Of a stretch of DNA of 64,000 bases, positions 37,601 to 62,994 are shown piece after piece (position 1 is the first letter of the stretch; every line of letters begins with the position of its first letter). The notes beneath the pieces were generated by a model. That model was not told the origin of the DNA and did no database searches. It saw nothing but the letters and a program-made list of their open reading frames with translations. Position numbers and translations under genes: made by a program. This DNA comes from an uncultured SAR86 cluster bacterium. GTDB taxonomy: Bacteria; Pseudomonadota; Gammaproteobacteria; Magnimaribacterales; D2472. The DNA is taken from the NCBI GenBank assembly GCA_902559885.1, contig CACEJU010000004.1, positions 4,526 to 68,525 on the forward strand. Reading direction: 5' to 3'.

Positions 37601-37619
37601 AAATTTAATTTAAAAATAC

Positions 37620-38312
37620 ATGGCAGATAAAATTTTAATAATTGAAGATGAGCCAGATATTAGTAAGGCTCTTGAGTATAATCTAAAAAAAGAAGGTTAC
37701 GATACTTATACAAGCTTAAATCTAAAAGATGGTTTAGCAGCAGTTTATGAAAACAAAATTTCATTAATACTTTTAGACTTAATGCTACCAGATGGCTCCG
37801 GTCTTGATCTATGCAAAAAACTCAAATCAAATCCTGAATATGATTTTATTCCTATAATTATACTCACTGCAAAAGATGATGAAGTAGATAAAGTCGTTGG
37901 ATTTGAACTAGGTGCAGATGATTATGTTACAAAACCATTTAGTATTCGTGAGCTAATTCTTAGAATCAAAGCAGTTCTAAAAAGAAAAATAGATAAAAAA
38001 GATTTAGTAGAAGTAGAGCGACAATTTGGTGATCTAAGAATGGATATTGATTCTCACGAAGTGTTTGTAAATAATGAAGAGGTTTTTTTAACAGCTTTAG
38101 AGTTTAAGTTATTAAAACAGTTAGTTGATAGAAGAGGTAGGGTCCAATCTCGAGATCAATTACTTGCTGATGTATGGGGTTATAGCTCTGATGTTACTAC
38201 TAGAACAGTTGATACACACATCAAAAGACTTAGAGAAAAACTTGGTGTGATCGGAAAGTATGTTCAAACCATCAGAGGTGTGGGATACAAATTCTCAAGA
38301 ACGCCTGACTAG
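37620..38312 (+). CDS. phoB: OmpR/PhoB-family response regulator, probable PhoB
   Basis: LLDLMLP receiver Asp; GADDYVTKPFS; TRTVDTHIKRLREKLG winged helix; phosphate-gene neighbourhood and downstream Pho boxes. Confidence 0.8.
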   Translation: MADKILIIEDEPDISKALEYNLKKEGYDTYTSLNLKDGLAAVYENKISLILLDLMLPDGSGLDLCKKLKSNPEYDFIPIIILTAKDDEVDKVVGFELGADDYVTKPFSIRELILRIKAVLKRKIDKKDLVEVERQFGDLRMDIDSHEVFVNNEEVFLTALEFKLLKQLVDRRGRVQSRDQLLADVWGYSSDVTTRTVDTHIKRLREKLGVIGKYVQTIRGVGYKFSRTPD

Positions 38313-38313
38313 T

Positions 38314-40074
38314 ATGGGTGTGCGCTCAAGAATTTTTCTAACGATATTTTTATCATTATTTTTAAGTGTAATAGCTACTTATTTTATTACCGAAAGAGAT
38401 CTTAGAAGAGGTATTGAAAACCAACTCGTAAGTGAGTTAGAGAAAGAAGCCAATTTAATTGTAGAAAATATTGGTAATGTAAGCAGTTTTCAAAGCTTAG
38501 AAGAATCTGATGCAGCGGCTGATAACCTTGGCTCAATTATTGATTCAAGGGTTACTTTGATTTCAAACGAAGGAGAGGTCGTCGGAGATAGTAGTCTTAC
38601 AATACAAGAAATATCTCTTTTAGATAATCACCTAAATAGATCAGAAGTAATTGAAGCATTAAAAAATAATCGAGGCTGGTCATCAAGGTATTCAAATACC
38701 CTAGATTCAAACCTTTTGTATTTTGCTGTATTAGATGAAAATATTGAGGAACCAAATGTTATAAGGGTTGCTGTTCCTTTATCGTCTCTGGATAGTGCAC
38801 TATCCTCATTAGAGTTAGCTATTAGTTTATTGTTTATTGTAGTGTTTATTGTTTCAGTATTTGCTAGTTTCATTTCATCAAGAATTTTATACTCAAATAT
38901 TGAAGCTCTTGATAAAGCAGCTTCTAGAATTATCGATGGAGCTATTAAAAAGAAAGATATTAAAGCACTTCCCACACAAAGAGTTGATGAATTTGGTAAC
39001 GTAGCTAGAACCATTTCTCAAATATCAGCAGACCTAAAACAACGTATCCAAGATATTGCAAAACAAAGAGACCAATTTGGTAATGTTTTAAACGATTTGG
39101 GTGAGGGTATTTTAGTTGCTGACAATAATGAAAATATTTTTTATTCCAACGAACAAAGTCAAATTATCTTAGAGCTTCAAAAGCTAAATGGAAGAAAACT
39201 ACAATCACTAAATATCCCTGCAATTAATTATTTAACTGAAAGAGCAAAAGAAAAAAAGAAAGCTGATATTGAATTTGAAATTGAGTTAAAAGATAAAACA
39301 ACTAGATGGGTCTTAGGATCTATGAATAAATCAAAGTCCACTGGTGAATTTATTTTAGTACTTCATGACATTTCACAATTACGTCAATTGAATTCAATGA
39401 GGCGTGATTTTATATCAAACCTTTCTCATGAATTAAGAACCCCTGTAAGCGTTATTAGAGCTAATTCAGAGACTTTATTATCGGGTGCACTAGAAGATAA
39501 AAAAGAAGCTGCTGTTTTTGCTAAAGCAATTATGCATAACTCTGAAAGATTATCTGAAATGGTATCAGATCTAATTGATTTATCGAGGATTGAATATGGA
39601 GACTTAAAATTAAATATAAGATCAATAGATGTTAATCAAATTATAGAATCAATAGTTTTCTCTATGAAAAGTATCTTAAAAAGAAAAAACATATCTATTA
39701 AATTTGACCCTCATCAATCAAAAAGTATGGTCGAAGCTGATTTAAATGCCTTAGAGAGAATCATTAATAATTTTATTGATAATGCGTATAAATATTCACC
39801 TAAAAATTCATCAATAGAAATTACAACTGAAAGTCCAAACGATGATATTAAAATTAATATTATAGATGAGGGGGATGGAATTGCTCCTAAGGAAATGAAC
39901 TTGATCTTTGATAGATTTTTCAGAACAGCATCTGCTAGAGCATCTGAAAAGTCAGGAAGCGGGTTAGGTTTGGCTATAGTTAAAAATCTTGTAAATAGTC
40001 TCAATGGAAAAGTTGGAGTTGATTCTAATGAAAAGGGCTCAACTTTCTGGTTCACACTACCAAAATCTAAATAA
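38314..40074 (+). CDS. phoR: Sensor histidine kinase, PhoR-like (2 TM, periplasmic domain, HAMP, PAS, HisKA, HATPase)
   Basis: RRDFISNLSHELRTP H-box; NFIDNAYKY, DEGDGI and GSGLGLAIVK boxes. Start moved to ATG 38314. Confidence 0.8.
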   Translation: MGVRSRIFLTIFLSLFLSVIATYFITERDLRRGIENQLVSELEKEANLIVENIGNVSSFQSLEESDAAADNLGSIIDSRVTLISNEGEVVGDSSLTIQEISLLDNHLNRSEVIEALKNNRGWSSRYSNTLDSNLLYFAVLDENIEEPNVIRVAVPLSSLDSALSSLELAISLLFIVVFIVSVFASFISSRILYSNIEALDKAASRIIDGAIKKKDIKALPTQRVDEFGNVARTISQISADLKQRIQDIAKQRDQFGNVLNDLGEGILVADNNENIFYSNEQSQIILELQKLNGRKLQSLNIPAINYLTERAKEKKKADIEFEIELKDKTTRWVLGSMNKSKSTGEFILVLHDISQLRQLNSMRRDFISNLSHELRTPVSVIRANSETLLSGALEDKKEAAVFAKAIMHNSERLSEMVSDLIDLSRIEYGDLKLNIRSIDVNQIIESIVFSMKSILKRKNISIKFDPHQSKSMVEADLNALERIINNFIDNAYKYSPKNSSIEITTESPNDDIKINIIDEGDGIAPKEMNLIFDRFFRTASARASEKSGSGLGLAIVKNLVNSLNGKVGVDSNEKGSTFWFTLPKSK

Positions 40075-40127
40075 TTCTTAATTGTAATAAAGCTTTACAG
40101 CATAAATGTATTTGATCTATAATTACT

Positions 40128-40167
40128 TTGTCACATAAATGTCACAATAATGTTTCATTTATGACAT
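40128..40167 (+). promoter_or_regulatory. Pho box (11-bp-periodic direct repeats)
   Basis: TTGTCAC (40128), ATGTCAC (40139), ATGTTTC (40150), ATGACAT (40161); compare the CTGTCAT-N4-CTGTCAC consensus. Confidence 0.75.
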
Positions 40168-40184
40168 AAATGATGGAGGTAAAT

Positions 40185-40490
40185 ATGAAATATATTATGT
40201 CATTAGTAGCTTTAGCATTAGTAGCAACACATGTTGATGCGGATCATCATTTTCAATCTAAAAGTATTAAATCATTTTCAATTGATAATAATGGGGTTAT
40301 AACTTTAAATACCAGAGCATCATCTTTTCAAGCTGATTTGAATAATTGTTCTATGAGCAAATTAAAGCAATTAGAGAATGTAAGTATATATACGCACTCT
40401 GCTTTAGTTAAAGAAAATACTAAAGTAAGCTTTTTATCAAACTCAGGTACTATGACTGGTTGCAAGGTTAATAATATTGTAAAGCTATAA
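40185..40490 (+). CDS. Small secreted protein with two Cys, function unknown
   Basis: GGAGG at 40175-40179 before ATG 40185; signal peptide MKYIMSLVALALVATHVDA; beta-rich mature part. Confidence 0.78.
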   Translation: MKYIMSLVALALVATHVDADHHFQSKSIKSFSIDNNGVITLNTRASSFQADLNNCSMSKLKQLENVSIYTHSALVKENTKVSFLSNSGTMTGCKVNNIVKL

Positions 40491-40510
40491 AAAAATTATT
40501 TGTACATGTA

Positions 40511-40535
40511 AAAGGCCAGCTACTAGCTGGCCTTT
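40511..40535. terminator. Intrinsic terminator-like hairpin
   Basis: AAAGGCCAGCTA-C-TAGCTGGCCTTT perfect inverted repeat after the small secreted gene. Confidence 0.75.
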
Positions 40536-40606
40536 GCATATATGTAACATAAATTACATATATTCTTTTCTTAAATTTCATTAACTTGTTGCGCAATTAT
40601 TACGAT

Positions 40607-40635
40607 TTGTAACATTAATCACACAATTTTTTCAT
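40607..40635 (+). promoter_or_regulatory. Degenerate Pho-box-like repeats upstream of the large lipoprotein
   Basis: TTGTAAC (40607), ATCACAC (40618), TTTTCAT (40629) at 11-bp spacing; weak in an AT-rich background. Confidence 0.4.
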
Positions 40636-40682
40636 TTTAACTCTATTAAATATAGTCATTAAATCTATTAGAGGAGAATTTA

Positions 40683-43616
40683 ATGTCTAATAACATAAAA
40701 TCATTAACTATATTACTATCATCATTATTTCTATTTGCTTGTGGTGGTGGCAGCTCATCAATCGCATCACCAGGAGAGGCAGGACCGCTTTCTGATCCAA
40801 CTGGAACAGGAGGAACTGGAGGTGCTTCAAGTTCTGTTTTAACTGGAACATGTCCAGAATCTCCATTTATAACTAATGGTTCACCTGTAGCGGGAAATAC
40901 TGTATGTGCAATTCAAGGCCCAGTGACAGCTGATCTTACTTTGACAGATGATGTTATGTACAGAATGCTTGGAAAAGTTGATATCGGTATTGATATGGGT
41001 ACTGATGGTACAAAAGAGGGCGGTGTTTCTGCTTCATTAACTATACCAGCTGGTGTAGTGATAATGGGTAAGGTTTCTGATGATTATTTAGTGGTTAATA
41101 GAGGGTCTAAAATTATTGCAAATGGAACTAGGTCAAAACCAATAAGATTTACCCATAATACAGCTATAGAAGGGACTGTAGGTGATCTTGAAAGAGGTTT
41201 ATGGGGTGGAATTGTTATCCTTGGGCAAGCACCAATAAACAAGTGCACTTATGATAATGGTGTTAGACAAATACCTTGTGAAAGAGTTGTTGAAGGGTCA
41301 AATGCTTTAATGGGTGGAGAAAACCCATCTGATAATTCAGGCGTTCTTAATTTTGTAAGAGTCGAATATGCTGGATATGAGATATTTCCTGGTAATGAGC
41401 TTAACGGTATCACTTTTGGAGCAGTTGGCTCAGGTACCCAAGTTGATTATATTCAAGTTCATAACAACATGGATGATTGTGTGGAGTTTTTTGGCGGCAC
41501 AGTAAATGTAAAGCATTTAGTATGTACAAATGCGGGTGACGATAATCTTGATATTGATTGGGGTTATCAGGGTAAAATTCAATTTGTAGTCGTTAAGCAA
41601 AGCTCTGATAAATCAGATCATGTCGTAGAGTCTGATAACGTTAATTCAGATACAACTGTAGGTTACTTAACAGAACCAAGATCTAGACCTATGGTAGCTA
41701 ATTTTACATTTTTAGCTCAAGGTGCTGATGAGCCAATGAAGTTAAAAGAAGGTGTTTCTGGAATTTATTTAAATGGTGTTATAAAAACAAAAAATCCTGC
41801 CAATATATTTGAGTCTACTTATATAGAAACAATTCAAGATGGTGCAGATACCGATAAAATCCAGATGCATTCCATACTCGCAGATAATTCAGGAAATGCA
41901 TCAGTGTTTAAAGCAGGAGATGATTCGCATACAAATGCTGAATTAGAGGCTTCAATTCTTGAAAGAGCTACTCAATTGAAGATTGCCAATAGTACCCTTG
42001 TTGGCGAATATTTTCTAGGTGAAGCTGAATCATCAGTTCCTTCAGCATTTAGTATTGGGCAGGTTCCTGCTATTTGTGCAGTTGGAACACATCCAGCAGG
42101 AACTCCAACAGATTTATGTCCTAGTGTTGATGAAGACGATGGAGACCTTTTGTATGCTGTAAATACATGGTTTTCAGCAACTGATTATATTGGAGCTTTT
42201 TCACCAGGATCTGATTTAGAGAACAACTGGGCTGCAGGTTGGACATTAGGTTTATTTAGTGAGCCAGGCTGTCCAGATGGAACGCTTGAATCAGAAATAC
42301 TCCTTGGTAAAAAAGTATGTAGCCTTCAAGGAGCTATAGAAGATGATATAACTTTAACATCAGGTAATTACTATAAGTTAGATGGAAAAGTCGCAATTGG
42401 TATTGATGTTGGTGCCTCTGGTGACGCATCAGGTGGAAAAGCAGCAACATTAACTATTGAGCCTGGGGTAACGGTTTTCGGAGAATCTGGTAATGACTAT
42501 TTGGTTATTAATAGAGGTTCTAAAATAAATGCTGTAGGCACCGTTTCTGCCCCGATAATTATGACTGGAAGAGCAGATATCCTTGGTCAAGCTGATATTG
42601 TAACAACTCGAGGTTTATGGGGTGGTTTAGTAATACTTGGCAGATCACCTATTAATAAGTGTAGCTATGTTTCATCAGGAACTAGAGTAGATCCATGTGA
42701 AAGGGAAGTAGAAGGTTCAGCTGGTGACACTATGGGTGGCGAAGTACCAGATGACAATAGCGGAACAATAAAATATTTAAGAGTTCAATATGCTGGATAT
42801 GAAGTATTTCCAGGTAATGAATTAAATGGAATTACATTTGGTGGTGTAGGCTCTGGTACAACCGTAGACTATGTTCAGGTTCATAATAATGCTGATGATT
42901 GTGTTGAATTTTTTGGCGGAACAGTTGATGTAAAACACCTCATATGTACTGGTGCTGATGATGATAATCTTGATATTGATTGGGGTTATACAGGAAGATT
43001 ACAGTATGTGATTGTTCAACAATCTAACGATAAAGGTGATCATATTGTTGAGTCAGATAATACAAATGCTGATGCCACTGTTGGTTATTTAACTGAACCT
43101 AGATCTAATCCAATTGTGTCTAATTTTACTTTTATTAGTAAAGGCCATGATGACATTTTTAAATTGAAAGAGGGTGTATCAGGACAATACTATAATGGTA
43201 TCGCTGTTGTGAAAAACAATGTAACTGGTAAAAATACTAATTGCATTGAAACAACAAAAGCTGAAACAGTTTTAGCAGGAGCAAAAACAGGAACATTTTC
43301 AATGAATAGTGTTGCTATGGACTGTCCTGGATATATTAAAACCAATGACGGTGTTGAAATAGCAACAGTAGATGCAATTGTTAAAGCAGGTATCAATAAC
43401 TTATATGCACCTACTTCAGGTGGCGGTACTTATGCTAATACTTTATCAGGAATTGTAAACGGCTCAGCTGAATCAGCAGCTATAGCCACTGAAGTTCCTG
43501 TTATCTACAACACAGATGGTTTCTTTGATACAACTTCATATATTGGAGCTGTAAGCGGATCAACTGATACATGGTATAAAAATTGGACTTTGTCAGGAAC
43601 TATTGAGGTTCAGTAA
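40683..43616 (+). CDS. Large lipoprotein with two tandem homologous beta-helix-like modules (ElpS-like)
   Basis: Lipobox LFAC followed by a Gly/Ser/Thr linker with IASPG; each half carries DNSG...YAGYExFPGNELNGITFG...DDCVEFFGG...DDNLDIDWGY; GAGGAG RBS. Confidence 0.8.
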   Translation: MSNNIKSLTILLSSLFLFACGGGSSSIASPGEAGPLSDPTGTGGTGGASSSVLTGTCPESPFITNGSPVAGNTVCAIQGPVTADLTLTDDVMYRMLGKVDIGIDMGTDGTKEGGVSASLTIPAGVVIMGKVSDDYLVVNRGSKIIANGTRSKPIRFTHNTAIEGTVGDLERGLWGGIVILGQAPINKCTYDNGVRQIPCERVVEGSNALMGGENPSDNSGVLNFVRVEYAGYEIFPGNELNGITFGAVGSGTQVDYIQVHNNMDDCVEFFGGTVNVKHLVCTNAGDDNLDIDWGYQGKIQFVVVKQSSDKSDHVVESDNVNSDTTVGYLTEPRSRPMVANFTFLAQGADEPMKLKEGVSGIYLNGVIKTKNPANIFESTYIETIQDGADTDKIQMHSILADNSGNASVFKAGDDSHTNAELEASILERATQLKIANSTLVGEYFLGEAESSVPSAFSIGQVPAICAVGTHPAGTPTDLCPSVDEDDGDLLYAVNTWFSATDYIGAFSPGSDLENNWAAGWTLGLFSEPGCPDGTLESEILLGKKVCSLQGAIEDDITLTSGNYYKLDGKVAIGIDVGASGDASGGKAATLTIEPGVTVFGESGNDYLVINRGSKINAVGTVSAPIIMTGRADILGQADIVTTRGLWGGLVILGRSPINKCSYVSSGTRVDPCEREVEGSAGDTMGGEVPDDNSGTIKYLRVQYAGYEVFPGNELNGITFGGVGSGTTVDYVQVHNNADDCVEFFGGTVDVKHLICTGADDDNLDIDWGYTGRLQYVIVQQSNDKGDHIVESDNTNADATVGYLTEPRSNPIVSNFTFISKGHDDIFKLKEGVSGQYYNGIAVVKNNVTGKNTNCIETTKAETVLAGAKTGTFSMNSVAMDCPGYIKTNDGVEIATVDAIVKAGINNLYAPTSGGGTYANTLSGIVNGSAESAAIATEVPVIYNTDGFFDTTSYIGAVSGSTDTWYKNWTLSGTIEVQ
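40851..43590 (+). repeat. Intragenic tandem duplication (unit 1 ~40851-42245, unit 2 ~42270-43590)
   Basis: Collinear protein motifs from CP...VC to YIGA...W..WT in both halves; DNA stretch GATAATCTTGATATTGATTGGGGTTAT is present in both. Confidence 0.9.
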
Positions 43617-43641
43617 TTAATTAGATCAACTGGAGAAAGTA

Positions 43642-46287
43642 ATGATCATAGAAAACAATACAAAATTAATTCAAAAACTCATAAGAAATATCTCCTTGAT
43701 GTTCCTTCTTTTAATATTCTCTGTTGCTCTTCTTCAAGCTCAAGAAGTTGAAGAGGTTGTTGTTCAAGGAACATTTATTCCTGATGAGAAGCGAGATACA
43801 TCAGAGATATCAGCTATATTAGACTCATCAGAAATTGAAAGAACTGGTGATGATAATATAGCAGTTGCTCTTACAAGATTAACAGGTTTAAGCTTGGTAA
43901 GAGGTAAGTATGTTTATGTTAGGGGTCTAGGTGAAAGATATTCTGCTGCTACTCTTAATGGTCTAGGATTACCTAGTCCAGAGCCTTTAAAAAGAGTTGT
44001 GCCTTTAGATCTTTTCCCAACTCAAATTGTTGAATCATCAATAGTTCAAAAAACTTATTCTGCAGATATGCCTGGAGAGTTTGGTGGAGGTATTATTGAA
44101 ATTAATACAAAGGCTGTACCAGATGATAGAGTATTAAGCCTATCATTCTCAAGTGGTTTTAATAGCGCAGCATCATTAAAAGATGGTCTATTATATGAGG
44201 GTGGATCGGATGATGACTTTGGCTATGATGATGGAACAAGAAATATTCCAAACTTCATTCAAAATGCTATCAATCAAAATAAAAAATTAGATAGATCAAA
44301 TTTTACAACCTTTGAGCTTGCTAATGCTGGTAGAGAGTTTGAAAATTCAAATCTATGGGTTATTCAAGAAGGAAATATTCCTCTAGATTCCTCTGCAAAC
44401 CTTACATTCGGCAATCAAATAGATGCATCTAATTTTGAAGATATTTTTAATGCTTCAGGTTTATCAATGGGTTACATTGCTACTTTTGGTATCAGAAATT
44501 CTTGGGATCACAAAGAGGGAATTAGACAAACTGGTGATATTCAAGGACAAGGAGATGGAACATCCAACGTAATTATTTCAAATGATAAAACATTTAGAAG
44601 TACATCTAATGATGTCACAACTTATGGCATGGTAGTTTTAGGTGCAGAAACTGATGCAACTGAGATTAAATATACAGGATTAAAAATTCACAAAGGTTCA
44701 AAGGAAGCTCGTATTCTTGAGGGATACGATTCTAGTGATTCTGGTAATGTTAGAGAAGATTTTACTGAATTTTTTGAAAGAGAACTAACCAATCATCAGT
44801 TAAATTTTTCTACTTATTTTGACAATGGTATGACTTTAGAAATCAAAGGATCTACTGGAGAAGCATCAAGGAATGCACCTTACGAGAGAGTTGTTTTTTA
44901 TGAAGACACTAATGATCTTGGTTATTGGAGATATGATGTTAATACTGGAAGAAATCAAACACAATTTAGCTATGTAGAGGATGAAATAGACAATATTGGT
45001 ATTGATCTTCAAATACCATTAACGATTAGTGATACTGAAGTAGAGTTAAAATTTGGTTCTGAACTTAAAGAAAATTACAGAGAAGCTGAAGTAAGAAGTT
45101 TTAGATTTTTAGCTGAAGGTGGTCCAATACCTACTGAGGGATTAGATAATAGAATCGACTATATTTTTGCTGACAAAAATTTTGATCCATCAAGATTAAT
45201 AGTAATTGAAAATACAGCTGCATCATCACCAGCTGGTTATCTTGGTGACCTTAAAACAAAAGCATTTTATATTTCAGCAGATGCATATTTAAATGAAAAC
45301 TTTCGTTTAGCATTAGGTTTAAGAAATGAACATGGAGAACAATCCGTGAATACATATGATGTATTTCAGCCAAATGATGGTTCGATAGAAAGATTAATAG
45401 ATGAATCATACTCATTACCATCTTTTACCCTTACATACCTTCCAGATTTTGATGAAAATCTTCAATTGAGATTCGGTGTCTCAAAAACAATTGCAAGGCC
45501 TACATTCAGAGAATTATCACCAACATTATTCGTTGATGTGGATACAGATAGAGTAGTTGCAGGATCCTTGTACTTAGAAAATTCTGAAATTGATAATATA
45601 GATTTAAGACTTGAGTATTATTGGGGTTTCAATCAGTTTGCTACCATAGGTTTTTTTATTAAAGATATAGAAAAACCTATAGAAGAAGTTGTAAATGAAT
45701 CAGGCGACTTAGTGATCACATCATTTCAAAATGTTCCTGCCGCTGAGTTAAGAGGATTTGAGATAGAGTACGAAAGACTATTTGATAGCTTATTACCTAA
45801 CTTGAATTGGGCAAAAACAAAAGAATTTCTTATAAAAATGAATTTTACTCAAACAGAATCTGAAGTTGTGTACGCAGCAGATGATGTTTATATTAATTCA
45901 CAAGGCGCTCCTGTTCTTGCATCTAATCTTTTCTTAAATGGAAGAGACACAAGATTGCAAGGTCAATCAGATCAAATTGCCAATCTTCAGTTTGGTTATG
46001 ATGATTTGCAAAATGGATCAAGTGCAACATTAATAATTAATTATGTATCTGACAGAGTCAGAGCAAGAGGTATAGATGTTTTACCAGATGTTATAGAAGA
46101 GCCACCCTTGCTAGTTGATTTTGTTTATTCAAGAGATATATCATTTAGTAATAACGATATGTCTATTTCACTTGAGCTAAGAAATCTTTTAGATGAAGAA
46201 TATTATGCCGCAATGGCAAATACTGCTATCTATGATCAATACGACCTAGGTAGATCTATTTCGATTGGTTTTAAATTTAACTTTTAA
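43642..46287 (+). CDS. TonB-dependent receptor
   Basis: Signal peptide; EEVVVQG TonB box; plug motif YVYVRGLGERYS...PSPEP..RVVPLDLFP; C-terminal FKFNF. Confidence 0.95.
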   Translation: MIIENNTKLIQKLIRNISLMFLLLIFSVALLQAQEVEEVVVQGTFIPDEKRDTSEISAILDSSEIERTGDDNIAVALTRLTGLSLVRGKYVYVRGLGERYSAATLNGLGLPSPEPLKRVVPLDLFPTQIVESSIVQKTYSADMPGEFGGGIIEINTKAVPDDRVLSLSFSSGFNSAASLKDGLLYEGGSDDDFGYDDGTRNIPNFIQNAINQNKKLDRSNFTTFELANAGREFENSNLWVIQEGNIPLDSSANLTFGNQIDASNFEDIFNASGLSMGYIATFGIRNSWDHKEGIRQTGDIQGQGDGTSNVIISNDKTFRSTSNDVTTYGMVVLGAETDATEIKYTGLKIHKGSKEARILEGYDSSDSGNVREDFTEFFERELTNHQLNFSTYFDNGMTLEIKGSTGEASRNAPYERVVFYEDTNDLGYWRYDVNTGRNQTQFSYVEDEIDNIGIDLQIPLTISDTEVELKFGSELKENYREAEVRSFRFLAEGGPIPTEGLDNRIDYIFADKNFDPSRLIVIENTAASSPAGYLGDLKTKAFYISADAYLNENFRLALGLRNEHGEQSVNTYDVFQPNDGSIERLIDESYSLPSFTLTYLPDFDENLQLRFGVSKTIARPTFRELSPTLFVDVDTDRVVAGSLYLENSEIDNIDLRLEYYWGFNQFATIGFFIKDIEKPIEEVVNESGDLVITSFQNVPAAELRGFEIEYERLFDSLLPNLNWAKTKEFLIKMNFTQTESEVVYAADDVYINSQGAPVLASNLFLNGRDTRLQGQSDQIANLQFGYDDLQNGSSATLIINYVSDRVRARGIDVLPDVIEEPPLLVDFVYSRDISFSNNDMSISLELRNLLDEEYYAAMANTAIYDQYDLGRSISIGFKFNF

Positions 46288-46304
46288 TATCTATTTTTTA
46301 TAAT

Positions 46305-46332
46305 AAATGAGCTACACTAGTAGCTCATTTTT
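46305..46332 (+). terminator. Terminator-like hairpin directly before the gspC start
   Basis: AAATGAGCTAC-ACTA-GTAGCTCATTT followed by TT; gspC ATG at 46336. Confidence 0.7.
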
Positions 46333-46335
46333 ATT

Positions 46336-48584: not shown

Positions 48585-48592
48585 AGTTAGCT

Positions 48593-55168: not shown

Positions 55169-55607
55169 TATTTCGTCCCTAAAGCCAAGAGAAAAATTTT
55201 TATTATTAATTATGATGTCTTTGATTGCTTTTATACTAATATTTTTTATTGCAAATAATGCCTTTAGTAGGCTTGCATCTTCTCAAGATAAATTGACATC
55301 TATTCAATCAGATTATGAGCATGTTCTAAAACGATATCAGCAGATTGAGAGATCAATAAATACAGAGATCTCTCAAGATAAGACAAAGCTTTTAGAAGCC
55401 CTTAAGACTTATATAGCGACTACAAATGTTAATTTAAATACTATAGATATAATTGAAAGCAATTTAGTTTTAAAAGTAACTTCGCCAGATATTGATAACT
55501 CTATTCAATTCATAAATAACATAGGCAGCAAATACAATCTAAAAATTTCAAGTATAGAATTACAAAGGGAAGGTCAAAAAATAGAACTAGAATTAGTTAT
55601 AAGTTAG
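55161..55607 (+). CDS. gspM: Probable type II secretion protein M
   Basis: LKPREKFLL followed by a TM and coiled region; position after gspL. Confidence 0.7.
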   Translation: MFNISSLKPREKFLLLIMMSLIAFILIFFIANNAFSRLASSQDKLTSIQSDYEHVLKRYQQIERSINTEISQDKTKLLEALKTYIATTNVNLNTIDIIESNLVLKVTSPDIDNSIQFINNIGSKYNLKISSIELQREGQKIELELVIS

Positions 55608-56470
55608 TTTTTTTTATTTTGTATCTCTATTTTTTTTGAGTATAACTCATGAAAGAGCTTTACAGCTATTGAATCTGAGACACCCCATTTAGTTGATTTA
55701 ATTTTTGTAATATTTGTACACTCAATAATTTTTTTGAATATCTCTAATGCATTATCAATAACATCAGCTCGATCAGGCGATAAATTTAATTTTTTTATTT
55801 TATTATCAGTAGAAAAATTAGTCAGCTCTGAATATTTATTCATGAACACATCGCTTGACATAGAGTCTTCATTGAAGATATTTAAAAAAGTTCTTATGTT
55901 TCCGCCTAATCCTATAAGTTTTTTTGGTAGCCTATTATTATGTAACCAGCTTTCAAGTTTATTCCATTCATTTTCTAGATCTTTTTTGTGTAACATTCTC
56001 ACTGCACCAAGCTGAAATGATTTAATTTTAATTTTTCCATTTTTATAAAAAAATAATTCAGTACTGCCACCACCTACATCAACAAAAATTTTATTTTCAC
56101 TATTTTCTGATTTTGGATGAAATCTTATTAATTTGGCCTCCTCAAGCCCTGAAATAATTCTTATAGGATGCTCAATTTCATTTTCTACATACCTTCGCGC
56201 ATCTTCAGAATTTGAAGTATCCCTGAAAGCTGATGTCGCCACGATTTCAAAATGTTTAATATTGTTTTTTTCAAAATATTGCTCATATTTTTTTAGAGTA
56301 TCTACTAGTTTATTTAATGTTGTTTGTGACAGGTAACCATTTTGAAAAACCTCAGTACCTAATCTAATGGGAGTCCTTATACCATCCAAAAAATTAATTG
56401 ATGTTGGAGTTGTATCAAAAATCTTCGACTTAACGGCGTTTGTTCCTATATCAACTGCAGCTATCTTCAT
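55604..56470 (-). CDS. ppx: Ppx/GppA-family exopolyphosphatase, short form
   Basis: AAVDIGTNAVK, ATSAFRD, ISGLEEA, DVGGGSTE and DRADVI motifs; no C-terminal HD domain. Confidence 0.9.
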   Translation of the reverse strand: MKIAAVDIGTNAVKSKIFDTTPTSINFLDGIRTPIRLGTEVFQNGYLSQTTLNKLVDTLKKYEQYFEKNNIKHFEIVATSAFRDTSNSEDARRYVENEIEHPIRIISGLEEAKLIRFHPKSENSENKIFVDVGGGSTELFFYKNGKIKIKSFQLGAVRMLHKKDLENEWNKLESWLHNNRLPKKLIGLGGNIRTFLNIFNEDSMSSDVFMNKYSELTNFSTDNKIKKLNLSPDRADVIDNALEIFKKIIECTNITKIKSTKWGVSDSIAVKLFHELYSKKIEIQNKKN

Positions 56471-57309
56471 TATGTATCATCACTATATTTTGTAAGTATC
56501 GTATACTGGTCATAATTTAAATTTTCAAACCTTACACCCTCAATTTTTGCAGTGTAATTCGCAATATTTTCTGACCATTTGAGAGGTTTTAATAATTTTT
56601 TATTTTCATAGTCAGTTTTATTTAGAAAATATCTTAAAGCTGTCAGTCTTGCTATCATTTTATTATTTGAATTAATAATCACCCATGGTGAATTATCTCT
56701 ACCTGTTTTTTTAAACATTCGATCTTTATAAAGGGTAAACACATCCCACTTATCCATGATTTTTTTATCATTTTCAGAAAGTTTCCAATATTTTAATTCA
56801 GAGAGCTCTCTAGCATTAATTCTTCTTTCTTGCTGATCTTTAGAAAGTGAAAAATAAAATTTAATAATTTCTGTACCATTTTTTATTAAATCATCTTCCC
56901 ATTTATTAACTTTTGACATGAAATATTTATATTGATTCTCGGTGCAATAACCCATAACAGGTTCAATGACCGACCTTGTGTACCAAGACCTATCTAAAAA
57001 TGCAATTTCTCCATTATGAGGGAGAACTTTTTCCCATCTTTGGAACCAGTGACTTGATTCCCATTTAGTTGGAATTCCTAAATGTACATATTTAAAATTC
57101 TTAGGAATTAAATACTCAGAGAAAAGTTTTATTGCAGAGCTTTTTCCAGCAGTATCTCTTCCTTCAAAGATAACACACAGCTTTCTGTTGTTTTTTATCA
57201 CATCCTCTTGCAACTTTAAGAGCTCAATTTGCAATCTTCTTTTTTCAAGAGAATAGGCTTTATCATCTAGTTTCTTATATTCTCTTTGATCAAGTTCTGT
57301 AATGCGCAT
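56470..57309 (-). CDS. ppk2: Polyphosphate kinase 2
   Basis: FEGRDTAGK Walker A; DRSWY; VMGYCT; WKLS. Confidence 0.93.
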   Translation of the reverse strand: MRITELDQREYKKLDDKAYSLEKRRLQIELLKLQEDVIKNNRKLCVIFEGRDTAGKSSAIKLFSEYLIPKNFKYVHLGIPTKWESSHWFQRWEKVLPHNGEIAFLDRSWYTRSVIEPVMGYCTENQYKYFMSKVNKWEDDLIKNGTEIIKFYFSLSKDQQERRINARELSELKYWKLSENDKKIMDKWDVFTLYKDRMFKKTGRDNSPWVIINSNNKMIARLTALRYFLNKTDYENKKLLKPLKWSENIANYTAKIEGVRFENLNYDQYTILTKYSDDT

Positions 57310-57356
57310 GTTTTAATATTAATGTAAATAATAATTGGTATTAAAAAAATATTATT

Positions 57357-57376
57357 TTTTAACGTAAATGTAACAT
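57357..57376 (+). promoter_or_regulatory. Pho-box-like repeat in the ppk2/pit divergent region
   Basis: TTTTAAC (57357) and ATGTAAC (57368), 11 bp apart. Confidence 0.45.
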
Positions 57377-57416
57377 TTAAATATAAAATAGATAGTAATT
57401 AAATTATTTCTTTATT

Positions 57417-58667
57417 ATGGAATCATTATTTATCGATCCTTACCTTCTTTTTTTGATTGCTGGGATTGTTGGTTTCTTCATGGCCTTCGGTATTGGTGCT
57501 AACGATGTTGCTAATGCTATGGGTACATCAGTTGGTAGTAAAGCAATTACTTTAAAACAAGCTGTAATCATTGCGGCAATATTTGAGTTTTTAGGAGCAT
57601 TTCTTGCTGGAGGTGAAGTAACCTCAACTATAAGAAAAGGTATAGTAGATCCAACAATTTATTCTGATGATCCAAATATATTTATCATTGGTATGCTTGC
57701 ATCTCTTCTTGCTGCCGGTACCTGGCTTCTAATGGCTTCATCAAGAGGCTGGCCAGTTTCTACCACTCATACTATCGTTGGAGCTATAGTTGGTTTTGTT
57801 ATTATTTCCAAAGGTATTTCGTTTGTATCATGGGGAACAGTTTCAAATATTGCAGGAAGTTGGGTTACATCACCACTTATATCTGGATTGCTAGCATTTA
57901 TAATTTTTAAAACTGCTCAGCACTTTATTCTTAATAAATCTAATCCTGAAAATGCCGCAATTAAAGTTATACCAATTTATACATTTATAGTGGCTGTAGT
58001 TATTAGCTTAGTGACCGCAAGAAAGGGTCTTAAGCATGTTGGCATTACATGGACTGATAATGAAATTTATTTGTATACAGTTATATTTAGTATGCTTATA
58101 TCTTTTGGAACATTTATTTATTTGAAGTTCAATTCAGCTAAAATTAAAACAAATGGAGTAGAGTCAGCATTTGCTGTTTTAATGGTTGTGGCTGCATGTT
58201 CTATGGCTTTTGCACATGGATCTAATGATGTTGCTAATGCTATTGGCCCTGTTTCAGCTATTTTTTCAACTGTTAACAATGAGGGCGCGATAGGCGCAAG
58301 CTCCGCTGTTAATACAGGGGTATTATTACTTGGTGCAGTTGGAATTGTTTTTGGTTTGGCATTTCTAGGCAGGCATGTTATTAGAACAGTTGGTGAGAAA
58401 ATTACTGCATTAACCCCAAGCCTAGGGTTTTCGGCTAACCTTGCAACCTCTATGACGGTTGTTGCAGCTTCTTATATAGGTTTTCCAATTTCAACAACTC
58501 ACACTTTAGTTGGGGGAGTGATTGGTGTTGGTATTGCAAGAAGTGCAAAAGATCTTAATCTTGATTCAATAAAAAAAATAATAACCTCTTGGTTGGTTAC
58601 TATACCTATTGGCGCAGCATTTACAGTTTTATTTTTTGTTATTCTAAGATTAATTTTTGGTGTTTAA
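57417..58667 (+). CDS. pit: PiT-family inorganic phosphate transporter
   Basis: Two signature repeats GANDVANAMG and HGSNDVANAIG; PVSTTH / PISTTH. Confidence 0.95.
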   Translation: MESLFIDPYLLFLIAGIVGFFMAFGIGANDVANAMGTSVGSKAITLKQAVIIAAIFEFLGAFLAGGEVTSTIRKGIVDPTIYSDDPNIFIIGMLASLLAAGTWLLMASSRGWPVSTTHTIVGAIVGFVIISKGISFVSWGTVSNIAGSWVTSPLISGLLAFIIFKTAQHFILNKSNPENAAIKVIPIYTFIVAVVISLVTARKGLKHVGITWTDNEIYLYTVIFSMLISFGTFIYLKFNSAKIKTNGVESAFAVLMVVAACSMAFAHGSNDVANAIGPVSAIFSTVNNEGAIGASSAVNTGVLLLGAVGIVFGLAFLGRHVIRTVGEKITALTPSLGFSANLATSMTVVAASYIGFPISTTHTLVGGVIGVGIARSAKDLNLDSIKKIITSWLVTIPIGAAFTVLFFVILRLIFGV

Positions 58668-59263
58668 TTTTCTTTTGATTGCTCTATCCAGTTAAGAATA
58701 TAGGCATGTCCAGCTCTATGAGCTTCAATTTTACCAACTTCATTTAACGCACCATCTTCTTTTGCATTCAATGAAAACACTGAAAGTATAATTTGAGCTA
58801 AAACTCTAAACACTCCATCTTTATTGAAAAAAGCAGGCATTTTAATATTAGAATCTACATAAGTTTGAATGCTTTTGCCTAAAACATGAATAGAGCTTTT
58901 ATCAATAGAAGGATTCAGCGTATTCTTTAAAATTAATTCTTGAGCTTGATTATTTGTTAGAAAGTATTCATATATGATATTAGTGCACTTAAGAACAACA
59001 ACAGAGGGTTCATTAGTATAAATATCTCCATTTTTATTATCTAGTTCAGCTGCAATTTCATTAATATACTTTTCAATCAATAATTTTTTAATTTGATTAG
59101 GGTTTTGGAAAAACTTGTAAGTAGAGGTTCTTTTAAGTCCAGATATCTCTGAAATCTTCGCAATTGAAATATTTTCGACGCCACTATTTTCAATGATAGA
59201 TTCCGCTGTATCTAATATTTTCTCAATTCTAAATTTACTTCTTTTTTGTTTTGCTATGCTCAT
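58664..59263 (-). CDS. TetR/AcrR-family regulator
   Basis: KQKRSK..IEKILDTA...ISIAKISEISGLKRTSTYKFF N-terminal HTH. Confidence 0.85.
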   Translation of the reverse strand: MSIAKQKRSKFRIEKILDTAESIIENSGVENISIAKISEISGLKRTSTYKFFQNPNQIKKLLIEKYINEIAAELDNKNGDIYTNEPSVVVLKCTNIIYEYFLTNNQAQELILKNTLNPSIDKSSIHVLGKSIQTYVDSNIKMPAFFNKDGVFRVLAQIILSVFSLNAKEDGALNEVGKIEAHRAGHAYILNWIEQSKEN

Positions 59264-59304: not shown

Positions 59305-59324
59305 ATGTTGCTAAATTGTTACAT
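59305..59324. promoter_or_regulatory. Possible Pho-box-like repeat (or TetR site) in the tetR/TBDR divergent region
   Basis: ATGTTGC (59305) and TTGTTAC (59316), 11 bp apart; the segment also has ATGT...ACAT inverted ends. Confidence 0.35.
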
Positions 59325-59390
59325 ATTAAGTATCTAAATGTTTCTATTTAAAAAAATAATAAGAATACATTTTTTATGAGGAATTATTAA

Positions 59391-61907
59391 ATGAATAAAT
59401 ATTTTACAAATTTTCTTGCTCTAACATTCTTTGTGGTCGCTGTAGCTCAAGATAGCGAAGAATCTGTAGAGGAGGTTGTAGTTGTTGGTACTAAGGCTAG
59501 TATTGTATCGGCATTAAGCAAACAACAAGCATCCGATAAGATTGTTTCAGTTGCTGACTCTGATGCGCTTGGTGATTTTCCAGATACTACTGCTGCAGAA
59601 GCTATAAGAAGACTATCAGGTATTACAGTTGAAAATGATCAGGGTGAAGGTAGATATGTAAGTATCAGAGGTTTATCTGGTGACTTAAACTCTATTGCTG
59701 TTAATGGTGCGCTTGTACCAGCTCCCGAAGGTGGAAGAAAGGTCATGCTAGATGGTCTGCCTACAGAACTACTGGATAATATTGAAGTTTACAAATCTCT
59801 CACACCAGATATGGATGCAGATGCAATTGGCGGCCATATTGAATTTAACACTAAAAGAGCAAGCTCTCTTGATGGAAGAATTTTAAAATTTAAATATGAC
59901 ACTTCTTATAATGAAAATACTGAGAATTCAGATAACCCAAAATTTGCTCTTAGTTATGGAGATATGATTACTGAACGTTTAGGTCATATTCTAGGCTTAA
60001 CTTACTCATCTAAGCAGATCATTTCATATAACAATGAAACTGGTTTTCCAGGTTGGACTGAAGATGATGACGGTGACAAGTACTTTGATGATGATTGGGA
60101 AATGAGGTACTACGATTTAACCAGAGAAAGATTTGGTTTAACTTATGATATTGACTATCAACTTAATGATGTAACTTTCTTATATGCAAATTTTCTTTTA
60201 AATGAATATGAAGATGACGAAGTTAGATTTAAAGATGAGCATGGAAAGCTTAAGTTTGGCGATATTAATGGTGATGTTGCAGAAATAACTAGAATTAGAA
60301 GAGATGCTGAAGCTAGAAAAAGAATTGAGAATAGAACTATTAGAACATTATCACTTGGATTAGAGACTGAATATAATGGGTGGTTTACGGAATTAAAATT
60401 TTCAAATTCATTTGCTGAGCAAGATGATACAGATAATGTAGATGTAAAATTTAGAAGCAGCACATTCGAATGTGAGCCTTGTGGTTATTTTACATATTCA
60501 AATGCTCAAACTCCTGCATTTACTTTTAACCCAAGTGTAGCTGATTTATGGAATACCGGAATCGGTGTTGATGCTTTTGAAGAAGAAGATGATTTAATTT
60601 CTGACAAAGAAACAGCAATAAAATTAGATATGACCAAAGATGGTTTTGAGGTTATTGGTCGACCAACTACTGTTAAGTTTGGATTTAAGCATAGTAACAG
60701 AGAAAAGAAACGAAATAATGAAGTCTGGGAATGGGAAGATGATGTCGTTACACAAGATCAATCTTTCTTTGGCGCAGACTACAGAGTAGACTGGCCTTTC
60801 CCTGGACAAAATATGGGCCCAATGGCAGATCCTAATCTTTTATTTACATACCAAAATACATGGGGTCCTTATACAAGAGGTCAGACTGAGAAAGATTACT
60901 TTTCAGAAGAAGAAATAATATCTGCATATGTTATGGGTACATTAGAATATGATAATGCTACTGTTATTGCAGGCGTTAGAGTTGAAGATACAAAATTTAA
61001 TACTCAAGGATTTAATGCTGAAACAGGTGATTTAATTTTTGGAGAAAATAATTATACGTTTGTTGCTCCAAGCTTAAATATTAAATATTTTTTATCTGAA
61101 GATGCAATATTAAGAGCTGCTGTATGGAAGTCTCTAGCTAGACCAGGTTTCAGTGAATCTGCGCCTGTTGCAGATTTTAAGAGTGATGGTGATGGGGTAT
61201 TTAAAGGTGAAATGGGTAATCCAGACTTAGATCCATATGAAGCAACTAATTACGATCTTTCCTATGAATACTATGGAGAAAATACAAGTTATTCTATTGG
61301 ATTTTTCTGGAAAGATATCTCTAATGCAATCTATCCTGTTATCACTGCAGGCACATACAATGGAATAGTATTTAATGAATTAGAAACATATGTAAATACT
61401 GATGACTCTAGAGTAGATGGAATAGAGTTAAATATCTTCCATGAATTTATTAATCTTCCAGAGCCACTTGATGGATTATTTGTTCAGTTAAATGTTACCA
61501 AAACAGATGGACAGAGCACATTGGCTGTAGATAGCGGTTCTGTAACATTCCCGTTTAGAAAACTTTCTGAGGATGTTTACAATTTATCAGTTGGTTATGA
61601 TAAGGGTCCATTTGATATTAGATTATCTTTAGTTTCAAGAAGTCCATACTTAGACTATCTTGCTGATGAGGATTCACCAGCTGAAACTCAAGAGGATCTA
61701 AATGTTGATAATATTAGATATACCGACGATCATAAGCAGTTAGATTTCAATCTAAAATATGATATTTCTGATAATTTAAGTATCAAATTCGACATTAATA
61801 ATATAGATGACGAACCAGAATATTATTATTGGGGTAGACCTGATAGACTCTCCCAATATGATGTTTATGGAACAACGTATTCAATCGGTGTTAGATATAA
61901 ACTATAA
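59391..61907 (+). CDS. TonB-dependent receptor (phytase-associated type)
   Basis: Signal peptide; EEVVVVG TonB box; ENDQGEGRYVSIRGL plug; GNPDLDPYEATNYD; C-terminal GVRYKL. Confidence 0.95.
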   Translation: MNKYFTNFLALTFFVVAVAQDSEESVEEVVVVGTKASIVSALSKQQASDKIVSVADSDALGDFPDTTAAEAIRRLSGITVENDQGEGRYVSIRGLSGDLNSIAVNGALVPAPEGGRKVMLDGLPTELLDNIEVYKSLTPDMDADAIGGHIEFNTKRASSLDGRILKFKYDTSYNENTENSDNPKFALSYGDMITERLGHILGLTYSSKQIISYNNETGFPGWTEDDDGDKYFDDDWEMRYYDLTRERFGLTYDIDYQLNDVTFLYANFLLNEYEDDEVRFKDEHGKLKFGDINGDVAEITRIRRDAEARKRIENRTIRTLSLGLETEYNGWFTELKFSNSFAEQDDTDNVDVKFRSSTFECEPCGYFTYSNAQTPAFTFNPSVADLWNTGIGVDAFEEEDDLISDKETAIKLDMTKDGFEVIGRPTTVKFGFKHSNREKKRNNEVWEWEDDVVTQDQSFFGADYRVDWPFPGQNMGPMADPNLLFTYQNTWGPYTRGQTEKDYFSEEEIISAYVMGTLEYDNATVIAGVRVEDTKFNTQGFNAETGDLIFGENNYTFVAPSLNIKYFLSEDAILRAAVWKSLARPGFSESAPVADFKSDGDGVFKGEMGNPDLDPYEATNYDLSYEYYGENTSYSIGFFWKDISNAIYPVITAGTYNGIVFNELETYVNTDDSRVDGIELNIFHEFINLPEPLDGLFVQLNVTKTDGQSTLAVDSGSVTFPFRKLSEDVYNLSVGYDKGPFDIRLSLVSRSPYLDYLADEDSPAETQEDLNVDNIRYTDDHKQLDFNLKYDISDNLSIKFDINNIDDEPEYYYWGRPDRLSQYDVYGTTYSIGVRYKL

Positions 61908-61919
61908 AAATAATGCCTT

Positions 61920-61950
61920 AAAAAGAGCAAGCTTTATGCTTGCTCTTTTT
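61920..61950 (+). terminator. Strong terminator-like hairpin overlapping the probable phytase start
   Basis: 13-bp perfect inverted repeat AAAAAGAGCAAGC-TTTAT-GCTTGCTCTTTTT. Confidence 0.8.
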
Positions 61951-62994
61951 GTATGTATTAACATAAACGCTGAATTACTACTTGATAAAAAAGTTTATAT
62001 TGTTAAACCTGTCAGTGAAACTGGGCAGGTTATTTCCAAAGGTGATGCTGCAGATGATCCTGCTATCTGGGTTAATCCATATAATTCAAGTAACTCACTA
62101 GTATTTGGAACAGATAAAAGAAGTGGAATTTATACTTTTGATCTGTTTGGTAATGAAATTAGCTATACAAAAATAGGAAAGATTAACAATATTGATTTAA
62201 GATCTATTGATTTCGAAAACAAAGGTAGTTTTTCTTTTATATTTGCATCAAATAGATCAAAACATTCTTTAGATTTATGGATCTATGAAAGCAAAGCAAT
62301 TGATCTTTTAATTAATAATGAATCTTTTTATATTCCAAAAAACTCCAATTTTTCTATTAACTCGAAAATGATCGTTTACGGTGTCTGCGCTGGTTATGAT
62401 ATTAAATATGGAGTCGTAGCATTTTTAACAGAAGATGAAGGCCCACATGTAGAAATGTATCAATACTATGATGATGGACTTAGACTCTTAAAAAGATTTA
62501 AAAATCAAAACTCAGAACAGTCAGAAGGCTGTGTCTATGATGATGAGAATAGAACTTTATTTATTTCTGAAGAAGGTGAGCGAGGAATAATTAGAGCTTA
62601 TGATATCAATGATGATTTAGACTTTTCTAATTTTAATGTTGTTGATACTAGAGAGGGATTTATTGATGAGGACCCAGAAGGATTAACTATCTATAAGACT
62701 GACGCAAACAAAGGTTATTTGATTGCTTCTTCGCAAGGTGACAATTCATTCAATCTTTATAATAGACAAAATCCTTATAATTACATTGGAAGTTTTAAAA
62801 TCGGTCATTCTTTAGGTATTGATAATGTTTCTGATACTGATGGTATTGATGTTACAAATATAAATTTAGGAACTAACTATAAAAAAGGTTTGTTTGTAGT
62901 TCAGGACGGAACTAATGATGGAGCAGAAATTGTCGAAAGACAAAACTTTAAATACGTTTCTTTTGAAGATGTAATTAAAGTGCTAAATCTCTAA
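61936..62994 (+). CDS. Beta-propeller phytase
   Basis: DAADDPAIWV, GTDK, NNIDLR, QSEGCVYDD, DPEGLTIY, SSQGDNSF, DTDGID and QNFKYV motifs. Start uncertain; 61936 is the first in-frame ATG after the TBDR stop. Confidence 0.92.
   Translation: MLALFVCININAELLLDKKVYIVKPVSETGQVISKGDAADDPAIWVNPYNSSNSLVFGTDKRSGIYTFDLFGNEISYTKIGKINNIDLRSIDFENKGSFSFIFASNRSKHSLDLWIYESKAIDLLINNESFYIPKNSNFSINSKMIVYGVCAGYDIKYGVVAFLTEDEGPHVEMYQYYDDGLRLLKRFKNQNSEQSEGCVYDDENRTLFISEEGERGIIRAYDINDDLDFSNFNVVDTREGFIDEDPEGLTIYKTDANKGYLIASSQGDNSFNLYNRQNPYNYIGSFKIGHSLGIDNVSDTDGIDVTNINLGTNYKKGLFVVQDGTNDGAEIVERQNFKYVSFEDVIKVLNL

Follow-up and report, generated by a model that had tools for sequence, protein, structure and literature searches.

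A probable PhoB-linked ElpS-type module in a conserved phosphorus-gene neighbourhood of SAR86 bacteria

In Caulobacter crescentus the gene for the lipoprotein ElpS is followed by cc0171, which encodes a TonB-dependent receptor, and by the type II secretion system (T2SS) genes gspC to gspN – a layout with counterparts in Xanthomonas, Sphingopyxis and Hyphomonas (Le Blastier et al. 2010, PMC2996285). According to the same study ElpS is induced by phosphate starvation, and the T2SS is needed for release of the lipoprotein and not for its export to the surface; a separate report places the Caulobacter T2SS within the PhoB regulon (PMC11208175). A review of Xanthomonas also names an ElpS homologue arrangement, with XAC0692 in the xcs cluster (PMC7777525). 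In Flavobacterium johnsoniae ElpS-related lipoproteins are reported to rank with the exoproteins that low phosphate induces most strongly (Lidbury et al. 2021, PMC8115612): two of the lipoproteins FI, FII and FIII adjoin low-phosphate TonB transporters, one of these pairs lying in a phoBR cluster, and a transporter in a phytase context is also induced by low phosphate. For both the Caulobacter and the Flavobacterium relatives the induction described is by phosphate starvation and not by nitrogen or iron limitation (PMC2996285, PMC8115612). Here we analyse a lipoprotein–receptor–T2SS locus of an uncultured SAR86 cluster bacterium (GTDB order Magnimaribacterales, family D2472). The locus lies in a stretch of 64,000 nucleotides (nt), hereafter the window, which spans positions 4526-68525 of contig CACEJU010000004.1 (GCA_902559885.1; 1.09 Mb in 31 contigs, 80% complete, no contamination).

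We propose – with a probability that we put at about 0.65 – that the locus is the SAR86 version of the PhoB-linked ElpS module, set within a conserved neighbourhood that holds most of the other phosphorus genes of the lineage. The genes stand in the order known from C. crescentus (lipoprotein, TonB receptor, T2SS genes), the lipoprotein carries a lipobox, a link to phosphate starvation is probably shared, and neither system has its prepilin peptidase gene within the gsp operon. The two nonetheless differ. In the window the lipoprotein is a tandem double (a form common in the family) and phoBR is immediately upstream; gspN was not recognised among the genes annotated, and the host is without PhoU, with Pst not found in its own genome. 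The core of lipoprotein, receptor and T2SS is not new: it is a known module in a new host.

Other described systems bear comparison. The xcs loci of Xanthomonas arboricola and X. dyei (L054 and L079 in our set) show the same order of lipoprotein homolog, first-receptor homolog and gspD-G, but in plant-associated bacteria with large genomes, and the 21-kb stretches around them showed no ppx, ppk2, pit or phytase. The Hxc system of Pseudomonas aeruginosa secretes the low-phosphate phosphatase LapA, and to our knowledge no lipoprotein/receptor pair of ElpS type exists at that locus. Hxc, named in the Xanthomonas review (PMC7777525), is a second, phosphate-linked T2SS, from which the SAR86 system differs in cargo and neighbours. 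F. johnsoniae, with FI-FIII, likewise has ElpS-related lipoproteins beside TonB transporters, in phoBR and phytase contexts; it belongs, however, to the Bacteroidota, has Pst and SusCD-like systems and involves no T2SS, and the likeness is that given by the statement on ElpS in PMC8115612 only.

Evidence that the lipoprotein belongs with ElpS came firstly from its own sequence. Its two halves are 57% identical over 356 amino acids (aa; E 7e-140), and its N-terminus consists of a hydrophobic stretch ending in Cys – the lipobox – followed by a Gly/Ser-rich linker. The domain PF28492, named Beta_helix_4 in the Atlas, is present in all 120 full-length homologs listed, and the closest named homologs come from 'SAR86 cluster bacterium' and uncultured Gammaproteobacteria. 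With one repeat as query, 5594 clusters were retrieved at E<=0.001, and in many of them the unit is present 2-8 times; relatives of ~480-500 aa with a single copy occur in Caulobacter, Phenylobacterium, Hyphomonas and sphingomonads. Each half aligns over the full length of the ~450-aa unit, lipobox included, with lipoproteins of Caulobacter, Phenylobacterium and sphingomonads, and identity to the Caulobacter-type proteins of ~480 aa is 38-40%, homology to ElpS being assessed via proteins of other Caulobacter species and not C. crescentus CC0170 itself. Judged by these alignments, the 977-aa lipoprotein is a member of the ElpS/Beta_helix_4 family and a true homolog. An earlier reading of the window, made from the DNA letters without database searches (the sequence-only reading), had noted the duplication of the lipoprotein and drawn an analogy with ElpS; the duplication is confirmed, and the end-to-end alignment of each half turns the analogy into homology.

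The layout was followed in named genomes by scanning one genome per species with an alignment headed by a Caulobacter sp. protein, which gave 80 loci; neighbours within 21-kb stretches were identified by tblastn with the window proteins. The lipoprotein homolog is followed immediately by a homolog of the first receptor at 71 of the 80 loci, or at 67 if only the 73 with room of 3 kb or more are counted; in the window the receptor gene starts 26 nt after the lipoprotein gene. The genes gspD/E/F are present at 26 loci (23 among the 54 where the room is 9 kb or more), including those of Caulobacter sp. CCH9-E1 and BE264, X. arboricola, X. dyei and Hyphomonas, and in the Caulobacter sp., Xanthomonas and Hyphomonas loci the lipoprotein homolog is followed by the receptor homolog and then gspD-G. 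Adjacent phoB (at least 40% identity) was found at 11 loci, in Rheinheimera, Arsukibacterium, Glaciecola, Aliiglaciecola and others, and at 38 loci the lipoprotein match covers at least two units.

The fold of the lipoprotein raises the question of what it acts upon. An AlphaFold2 model of the double protein comprises two right-handed parallel beta-helices (predicted local distance difference test, pLDDT, 80.8; single-repeat model 87.8). Fold searches with both models matched only the generic right-handed beta-helix – on which ground we rejected the fold as a guide to function – and a sequence search of solved structures gave no match for the lipoprotein or for the first receptor. One account of the lipoprotein–receptor pair is that it serves uptake of glycans or other carbon polymers, with the lipoprotein as lyase, hydrolase or binder, and that its place by the phosphorus genes reflects regulation or chance. 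The fold matches are indeed to polysaccharide lyases, epimerases and depolymerase tailspikes (VIA Z 20-23; Foldseek PL6 E 2e-5), acidic residues are invariant on successive rungs of the helix, Lidbury et al. suggest a role on plant cell-wall molecules (PMC8115612), and SAR86 is reported to have many receptors for carbon compounds (PMC3358033). However, the relatives in Caulobacter and Flavobacterium are induced specifically by phosphate starvation (PMC2996285, PMC8115612), phoBR is adjacent in several lineages, Pho-box-like repeats lie upstream, the pair co-occurs with the phytase-linked receptor, and the cluster itself holds no glycoside hydrolase or sugar carrier. We consider it very unlikely that the pair is a carbon-polymer uptake system.

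The setting of the module was traced in 20 relatives of 8 genera, 10 bearing the lipoprotein and 10 without it, by fetching ~40 kb around gspD and mapping the window genes by tblastn; presence and absence were scored in a SAR86 family set of 121 genomes (our own and 120 others, 26 of them high-quality) and an order-level set, also of 121 genomes, covering four families (55 high-quality). In the fetched relatives the backbone comprises ggt, acyl-CoA synthetases, phoB, phoR, gspC-M, ppx, ppk2, pit, tetR, phytase and epoxide hydrolase. The sequence-only reading had described the genes as an island. With G+C even across the window (27-37%) and flanks syntenic in relatives, we rejected a mobile or acquired island: the cluster is a conserved chromosomal neighbourhood, parts of which are gained and lost separately.

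The extent of this gain and loss is evident from the counts. Orthologs of phoB occur in 88 of the 121 family genomes (23 of the 26 high-quality ones) and GspD in 80 (20), the lipoprotein in 39 (13) and the second, phytase-linked receptor in 44 (17); at the level of the order the lipoprotein is found in 46 of 121 genomes and in all four families. Of the 10 relatives that bear the lipoprotein, seven have the lipoprotein–receptor cassette between phoR and gspC and three (G001, G013 and G044) have it elsewhere. The 10 relatives without the cassette are also without the second receptor, within the stretch fetched, and 7 of them retain a more distant phytase (43-50% identity); ppx and ppk2 are missing in G002 and G026. 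In the family set 31 genomes have both lipoprotein and second receptor, 8 the lipoprotein only, 13 the receptor only and 69 neither, and the second receptor is present in all 13 high-quality lipoprotein genomes. GspD accompanies the lipoprotein in 36 of 39 genomes, against 44 of the 82 that have no lipoprotein, whereas no clear association is seen between second receptor and GspD (both in 33 genomes, the receptor alone in 11, GspD alone in 47 and neither in 30). Since kin genomes are not independent, Fisher p-values on such co-distributions overstate. Five genera hold both states, with the cassette or module present in some members and absent from others. In a relative that consists of a single contig, G007:C1, the cluster is split: the gsp genes, receptor and lipoprotein lie at ~485-493 kb with a partial phoB-like remnant, and a full phoB and the second receptor lie at ~545-554 kb, apart from the gsp group.

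These distributions bear directly on the scheme put forward in the sequence-only reading, in which all the genes form one self-contained pathway: polymeric phosphorus (polyphosphate, for example) is captured by T2SS-displayed proteins, taken up through the first receptor and handled by Pit, PPK2 and PPX. The genes do lie side by side, and the part of that scheme that concerns synteny held up across the 20 relatives; moreover, the lipoprotein is nested in T2SS-bearing genomes (36/39), and possession of PPK2 and PPX without PPK1 (0/121) could suit the use of ready-made polyphosphate. A single self-contained pathway is unsupported because the modules vary independently over the 121 genomes. In addition, the cassette relocates in 3 of 10 relatives, eight of the 10 fetched genomes without lipoprotein and receptor have ppx and ppk2, no inner-membrane polyphosphate carrier was found among the annotated genes, and the secretion genes are preceded by a promoter-like site of their own but by no Pho box. 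Nor does the Caulobacter precedent help: the scheme took ElpS to be exported by the T2SS, whereas PMC2996285 ties the T2SS to release of ElpS and reports it unnecessary for ElpS to reach the surface. That all these genes constitute one pathway for polymeric phosphorus appears to us distinctly improbable.

The secretion genes merit separate consideration. GspD, E, F, G, I, J and K exceed their Pfam cut-offs; GspH was recognised via NCBIfam, under cut-off, GspC and GspM fall under the Pfam gathering score, and GspL, which has no Pfam match, was assigned by position and tblastn to relatives only. The sole Peptidase_A24 protein of the assembly is GspO; in relatives its gene is found beside ggt or phoB. 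On these assignments the predicted T2SS component set (C-M plus prepilin peptidase) is complete. Before gspC lie a promoter-like site and an 11-pair hairpin; the core sequence of the hairpin is kept in relatives whether the receptor or phoR lies upstream. The hairpin may act as a terminator or attenuator or form a leader structure. With its T-rich tail it occupies 46305-46330, at a distance of 5 nt from the start of gspC. The gspO gene directly adjoins phoB in two genera (G076, G007).

The case for control of the module by PhoB and PhoR draws on the regulators themselves and on the distribution of Pho-box-like repeats. The PhoB-like protein is the only full-length OmpR-type regulator in the assembly. 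In the kinase two membrane helices flank a periplasmic sCache-like domain of ~140 aa, followed by HAMP and PAS domains (by position), HisKA and HATPase. Repeats resembling the Pho box precede the small orphan gene, the lipoprotein gene, pit and the second receptor gene. The first of these includes an exact two-repeat match (40129-40146), extended by a third repeat to 40157, and is the sole exact match in the 1.09-Mb genome; the Pho-box gene of the sequence-only reading is borne out to this extent. Upstream of the lipoprotein gene repeats at a ~11-nt period were seen by eye, at 100-140 nt, in all 11 sequences inspected. Similar repeat words stand upstream of pit in the window and 12 of 19 relatives. 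The second receptor gene is preceded by such words in the window and in 5 of 8 relatives; in the remaining three TTCACA-type repeats can be made out by eye. A loose two-repeat pattern matches the genome at only two places, both in intergenic DNA of the cluster and one of them 5' of pit: it is the placement of these matches that is telling, and not their count.

The small orphan protein has no Pfam or NCBIfam match. It was rejected as a conserved member of the neighbourhood, being found in 1 of 41 genomes (our own) and absent at this position in 10 relatives. The exact Pho box at 40129 comes shortly after the best sigma-70-like site of the region (11/12 matches), whose end is at 40123; this box could lie downstream of a -10 element, and its effect on the orphan gene could then be repression and not activation.

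Sequences from RNA libraries add a further line of observation. Between 22 and 45% of sampled words of 37600-47500 are contained in 14 RNA runs, and contigs of four runs from four studies cover 22-28 of the 30 bins of 37600-57500, from phoB to gspL; bins without cover (for example 55528-56191 in all four runs) are uninformative. Two pieces span the lipoprotein–receptor junction (X2, 43203-44978; X5, 43155-43898). A mesocosm study reports pit transcripts that come mostly from SAR86 and Pseudomonadales and rise in phosphate-poor treatments; SAR86 pst transcripts are reported in the same study (PMC12981677).

A number of findings weigh against a PhoB-linked phosphorus module. Both regulators fall under the curated NCBIfam cut-offs, and for the kinase PnpS (294.5 bits, cut-off 400) and WalK (275.1 bits) outscore PhoR_proteo (235 bits, cut-off 334.2), all three under their cut-offs; the PhoB cut-off (296.2), though, is passed by only 2 of 14 control genomes. 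With at most three mismatches allowed, the box 5' of the lipoprotein gene is present in only 3 of 10 relatives, the rest having been judged by eye, and no Pho-box-like repeat was seen upstream of gspC or phoB. The loose pattern has 2 matches in the genome as compared to a mean of 4.75 in shuffled sequence, that is, no enrichment. The best NCBIfam models of the PiT-family transporter are both far under cut-off, and the top match is a sulfate permease, CysP (114.8 against 400), ahead of PitA (74.2 against 800). The beta-helix of the lipoprotein is the fold of polysaccharide-active enzymes and adhesins and carries no phosphorus-specific signal; GspD occurs without the lipoprotein in 44 genomes and the second receptor without GspD in 11; and the RNA-library contigs show presence only, and are no proof of transcription, level or phosphate response.

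Another account would reduce the cluster to inherited gene order, with a two-component system that is no phosphate sensor and genes that act independently, without common control. Beyond the sub-threshold regulator scores and the lack of genome-wide enrichment, this account can appeal to the fact that there is no PhoU or Pst to couple to, and that the Cache-like domain of the kinase is extracytoplasmic. But PhoB is the best match of the regulator, which has no OmpR-type competitor in the assembly, both pattern matches of the entire genome lie in intergenic DNA of the cluster, and repeats recur upstream of three operons across genera. Homologous phoBR genes, moreover, stand beside the lipoprotein–receptor pair in Alteromonadales and, as described in PMC8115612, in Flavobacterium, and SAR86 pit transcripts respond to phosphate (PMC12981677). 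Inherited gene order without common control is, we think, improbable.

The absence of PhoU is a property of the whole lineage. The sequence-only reading had found no pstSCAB or phoU in the window, and a search of our own 80%-complete genome likewise failed to reveal PhoU or a PstS-type binding protein (PF12849), while neither PstC nor PstB exceeded its cut-off. PhoU is absent from all 121 family genomes, the 26 high-quality ones included; in the order it occurs in 1 of 121 genomes, one that is 75% complete, and in none of the 55 of high quality. PstC exceeds its cut-off in 4 of the 121 family genomes. Missing PhoU and near-missing Pst are thus a lineage trait, alongside which stands a published account of SAR86 with pit as a core gene and Pst in a subset only (Freel et al., PMC11582366). 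All four PstC-complete genomes are without the lipoprotein and the second receptor, which at n=4 is not significant (Fisher p ~0.3). PPK1, too, was found in none of the 121 family genomes and none of the 26 high-quality ones, while PPK2 and the short PPX are syntenic in relatives; polyphosphate metabolism in the lineage would, on this gene content, rest on PPK2 alone. In the Pst-carrying relative G035 a phoB match (G035:C2:56427-56786) covers only residues 111-230 and contains three in-frame TAA stops; this stretch may be a decaying phoB.

Coordinates of the features are collected in Table 1. Gene identities come from Pfam and NCBIfam profile searches of the window proteins, with scores judged against curated cut-offs. 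Every gene named in the sequence-only reading was recovered at or near its position, the TetR call being weak.

Table 1. Features of the SAR86 phosphorus-gene neighbourhood (window positions). Likely starts differ slightly from the longest open reading frames (ORFs) for the kinase (38314; ORF from 38260), the small gene (40185) and the phytase (61936).
Feature	Position	Strand	Evidence
Secreted PhoD-like phosphatase	29622-30656	-	PF09423 51.3 bits (cut-off 27); Sec-type signal peptide in translation
Prepilin peptidase GspO/PilD	31637-32395	-	PF06750 82.1 bits, PF01478 48.1 bits
PhoB-like response regulator	37620-38312	+	best NCBIfam TIGR02154 PhoB, 239.8 bits (cut-off 296.2)
PhoR-like histidine kinase, 604 aa	38314-40074	+	HisKA, HATPase_c, sCache_like (28.7 bits, cut-off 27)
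Pho-box-like array, three 7-nt direct repeats, 11-nt period	40129-40157	+	exact match to repeat-N4-repeat pattern
Small secreted orphan protein	40185-40490 (ORF 40170)	+	signal peptide visible; 106 aa
Pho-box-like repeat pair 5' of lipoprotein gene	40608-40625	+	3 mismatches to perfect pattern
Tandem-double ElpS-family (Beta_helix_4, PF28492) lipoprotein, 977 aa	40683-43616	+	lipobox, internal repeat, homologs
CC0171-type TonB-dependent receptor, divergent	43642-46287	+	Plug 30 bits; TIGR01782 205.7 bits (cut-off 310)
Promoter-like site, then conserved 11-pair hairpin, before gspC	46277-46330	+	core sequence kept in relatives
Type II secretion genes gspC,D,E,F,G,H,I,J,K,L,M	46336-55607	+	Pfam, NCBIfam, position
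Short exopolyphosphatase ppx (Ppx/GppA N-terminal part only)	55604-56470	-	PF02541 100.4 bits; TIGR03706 171 (cut-off 307)
Single-domain ppk2, 279 aa	56470-57309	-	PF03976 220.2 bits (cut-off 22.3); TIGR03707 287.9 (cut-off 301.8)
Pho-box-like repeat pair 5' of pit	57358-57375	+	loose two-repeat pattern
PiT/PHO4-family transporter (pit)	57417-58667	+	PF01384 364.7 bits (cut-off 33.7)
Divergent TetR-family regulator (weak call)	58664-59263	-	TetR_N Pfam E 0.07; AcrR E 1.1e-4
Pho-box-like repeat pair 5' of second receptor	59306-59323	+	repeat words
Second TonB-dependent receptor, paired with phytase	59391-61907	+	TIGR01782 488.9 bits (cut-off 310); plug and barrel domains
Secreted beta-propeller phytase	61936-62994	+	PF02333 195 bits (cut-off 21); signal peptide

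PPK2, PiT/PHO4 and the beta-propeller phytase all pass their Pfam gathering scores. The TetR candidate has 50 weak matches in the PDB, of which all named chains are TetR-family regulators or close kin (best E 0.0033), and its gene is kept in 19 of the 20 fetched relatives. The genes for the PhoD-like phosphatase and GspO sit 5-8 kb upstream of phoB, outside the span considered in the sequence-only reading; the former is syntenic in 9 of the 20 relatives, those whose stretch reached that far. Between the two lie a gene for a divergent 245-aa lipoprotein of no family (30685-31422) and a probable tRNA gene at ~31480-31560, read by eye. Further upstream, at 23547-25872 of the window, an MFS_2 sugar transporter adjoins a GH17 glycoside hydrolase; these may be a small uptake pair for beta-glucan. 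Elsewhere in the genome (C5:19479-20645) there is a PhoX alkaline phosphatase with a twin-arginine signal peptide. PhoX was rejected as a further Pho-box gene: no repeat was seen upstream of phoX in our own genome.

Beyond the homologies, the synteny, the patchy modules, the Pho-box-like repeats and the lack of PhoU and PPK1 that we report, we infer a mechanism for the SAR86 version of the ElpS module and its neighbours along the following lines. PhoR would sense phosphate without Pst or PhoU, perhaps via its periplasmic Cache-like domain, and PhoB would then turn on the lipoprotein–receptor pair, pit and the receptor–phytase pair. At the surface the lipoprotein may bind or cut an anionic, phosphorus-bearing substrate, to be imported by its receptor with TonB energy, while phytate or phytate complexes could be imported by the second receptor. 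Periplasmic or secreted phosphatases – the phytase, the PhoD-like enzyme and PhoX – would liberate phosphate, Pit would carry it over the inner membrane, and PPK2 and the short PPX may buffer it as polyphosphate. The T2SS could be a helper transcribed on its own, like that of Caulobacter, which acts in the release of ElpS and not in its export. A bolder version of these ideas is that the two TonB import modules, together with periplasmic phosphatases and Pit, concentrate phosphate in the periplasm and so replace PstSCAB as the high-affinity uptake route, that PhoR reads periplasmic phosphate directly through the Cache-like domain, and that the ElpS-family protein is a new surface binder or hydrolase of phosphorus polymers; taken as a whole we regard this version as rather unlikely.

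SAR86 bacteria are among the most abundant of the surface ocean, and their acquisition of phosphorus is poorly described. The words phytase, polyphosphate and secretion are absent from the main texts (supplements aside) of two SAR86 genome papers (PMC3358033, PMC11582366), and a literature search on SAR86 with phytase and TonB, or with phosphate and type II secretion, returned nothing relevant. The locus described here gathers the phosphorus genes of the lineage around an ElpS-type module, with a PhoB–PhoR pair that runs without PhoU. The patchy presence of the cassette and of the receptor–phytase pair within genera provides natural contrasts that can be set against ocean phosphate gradients.

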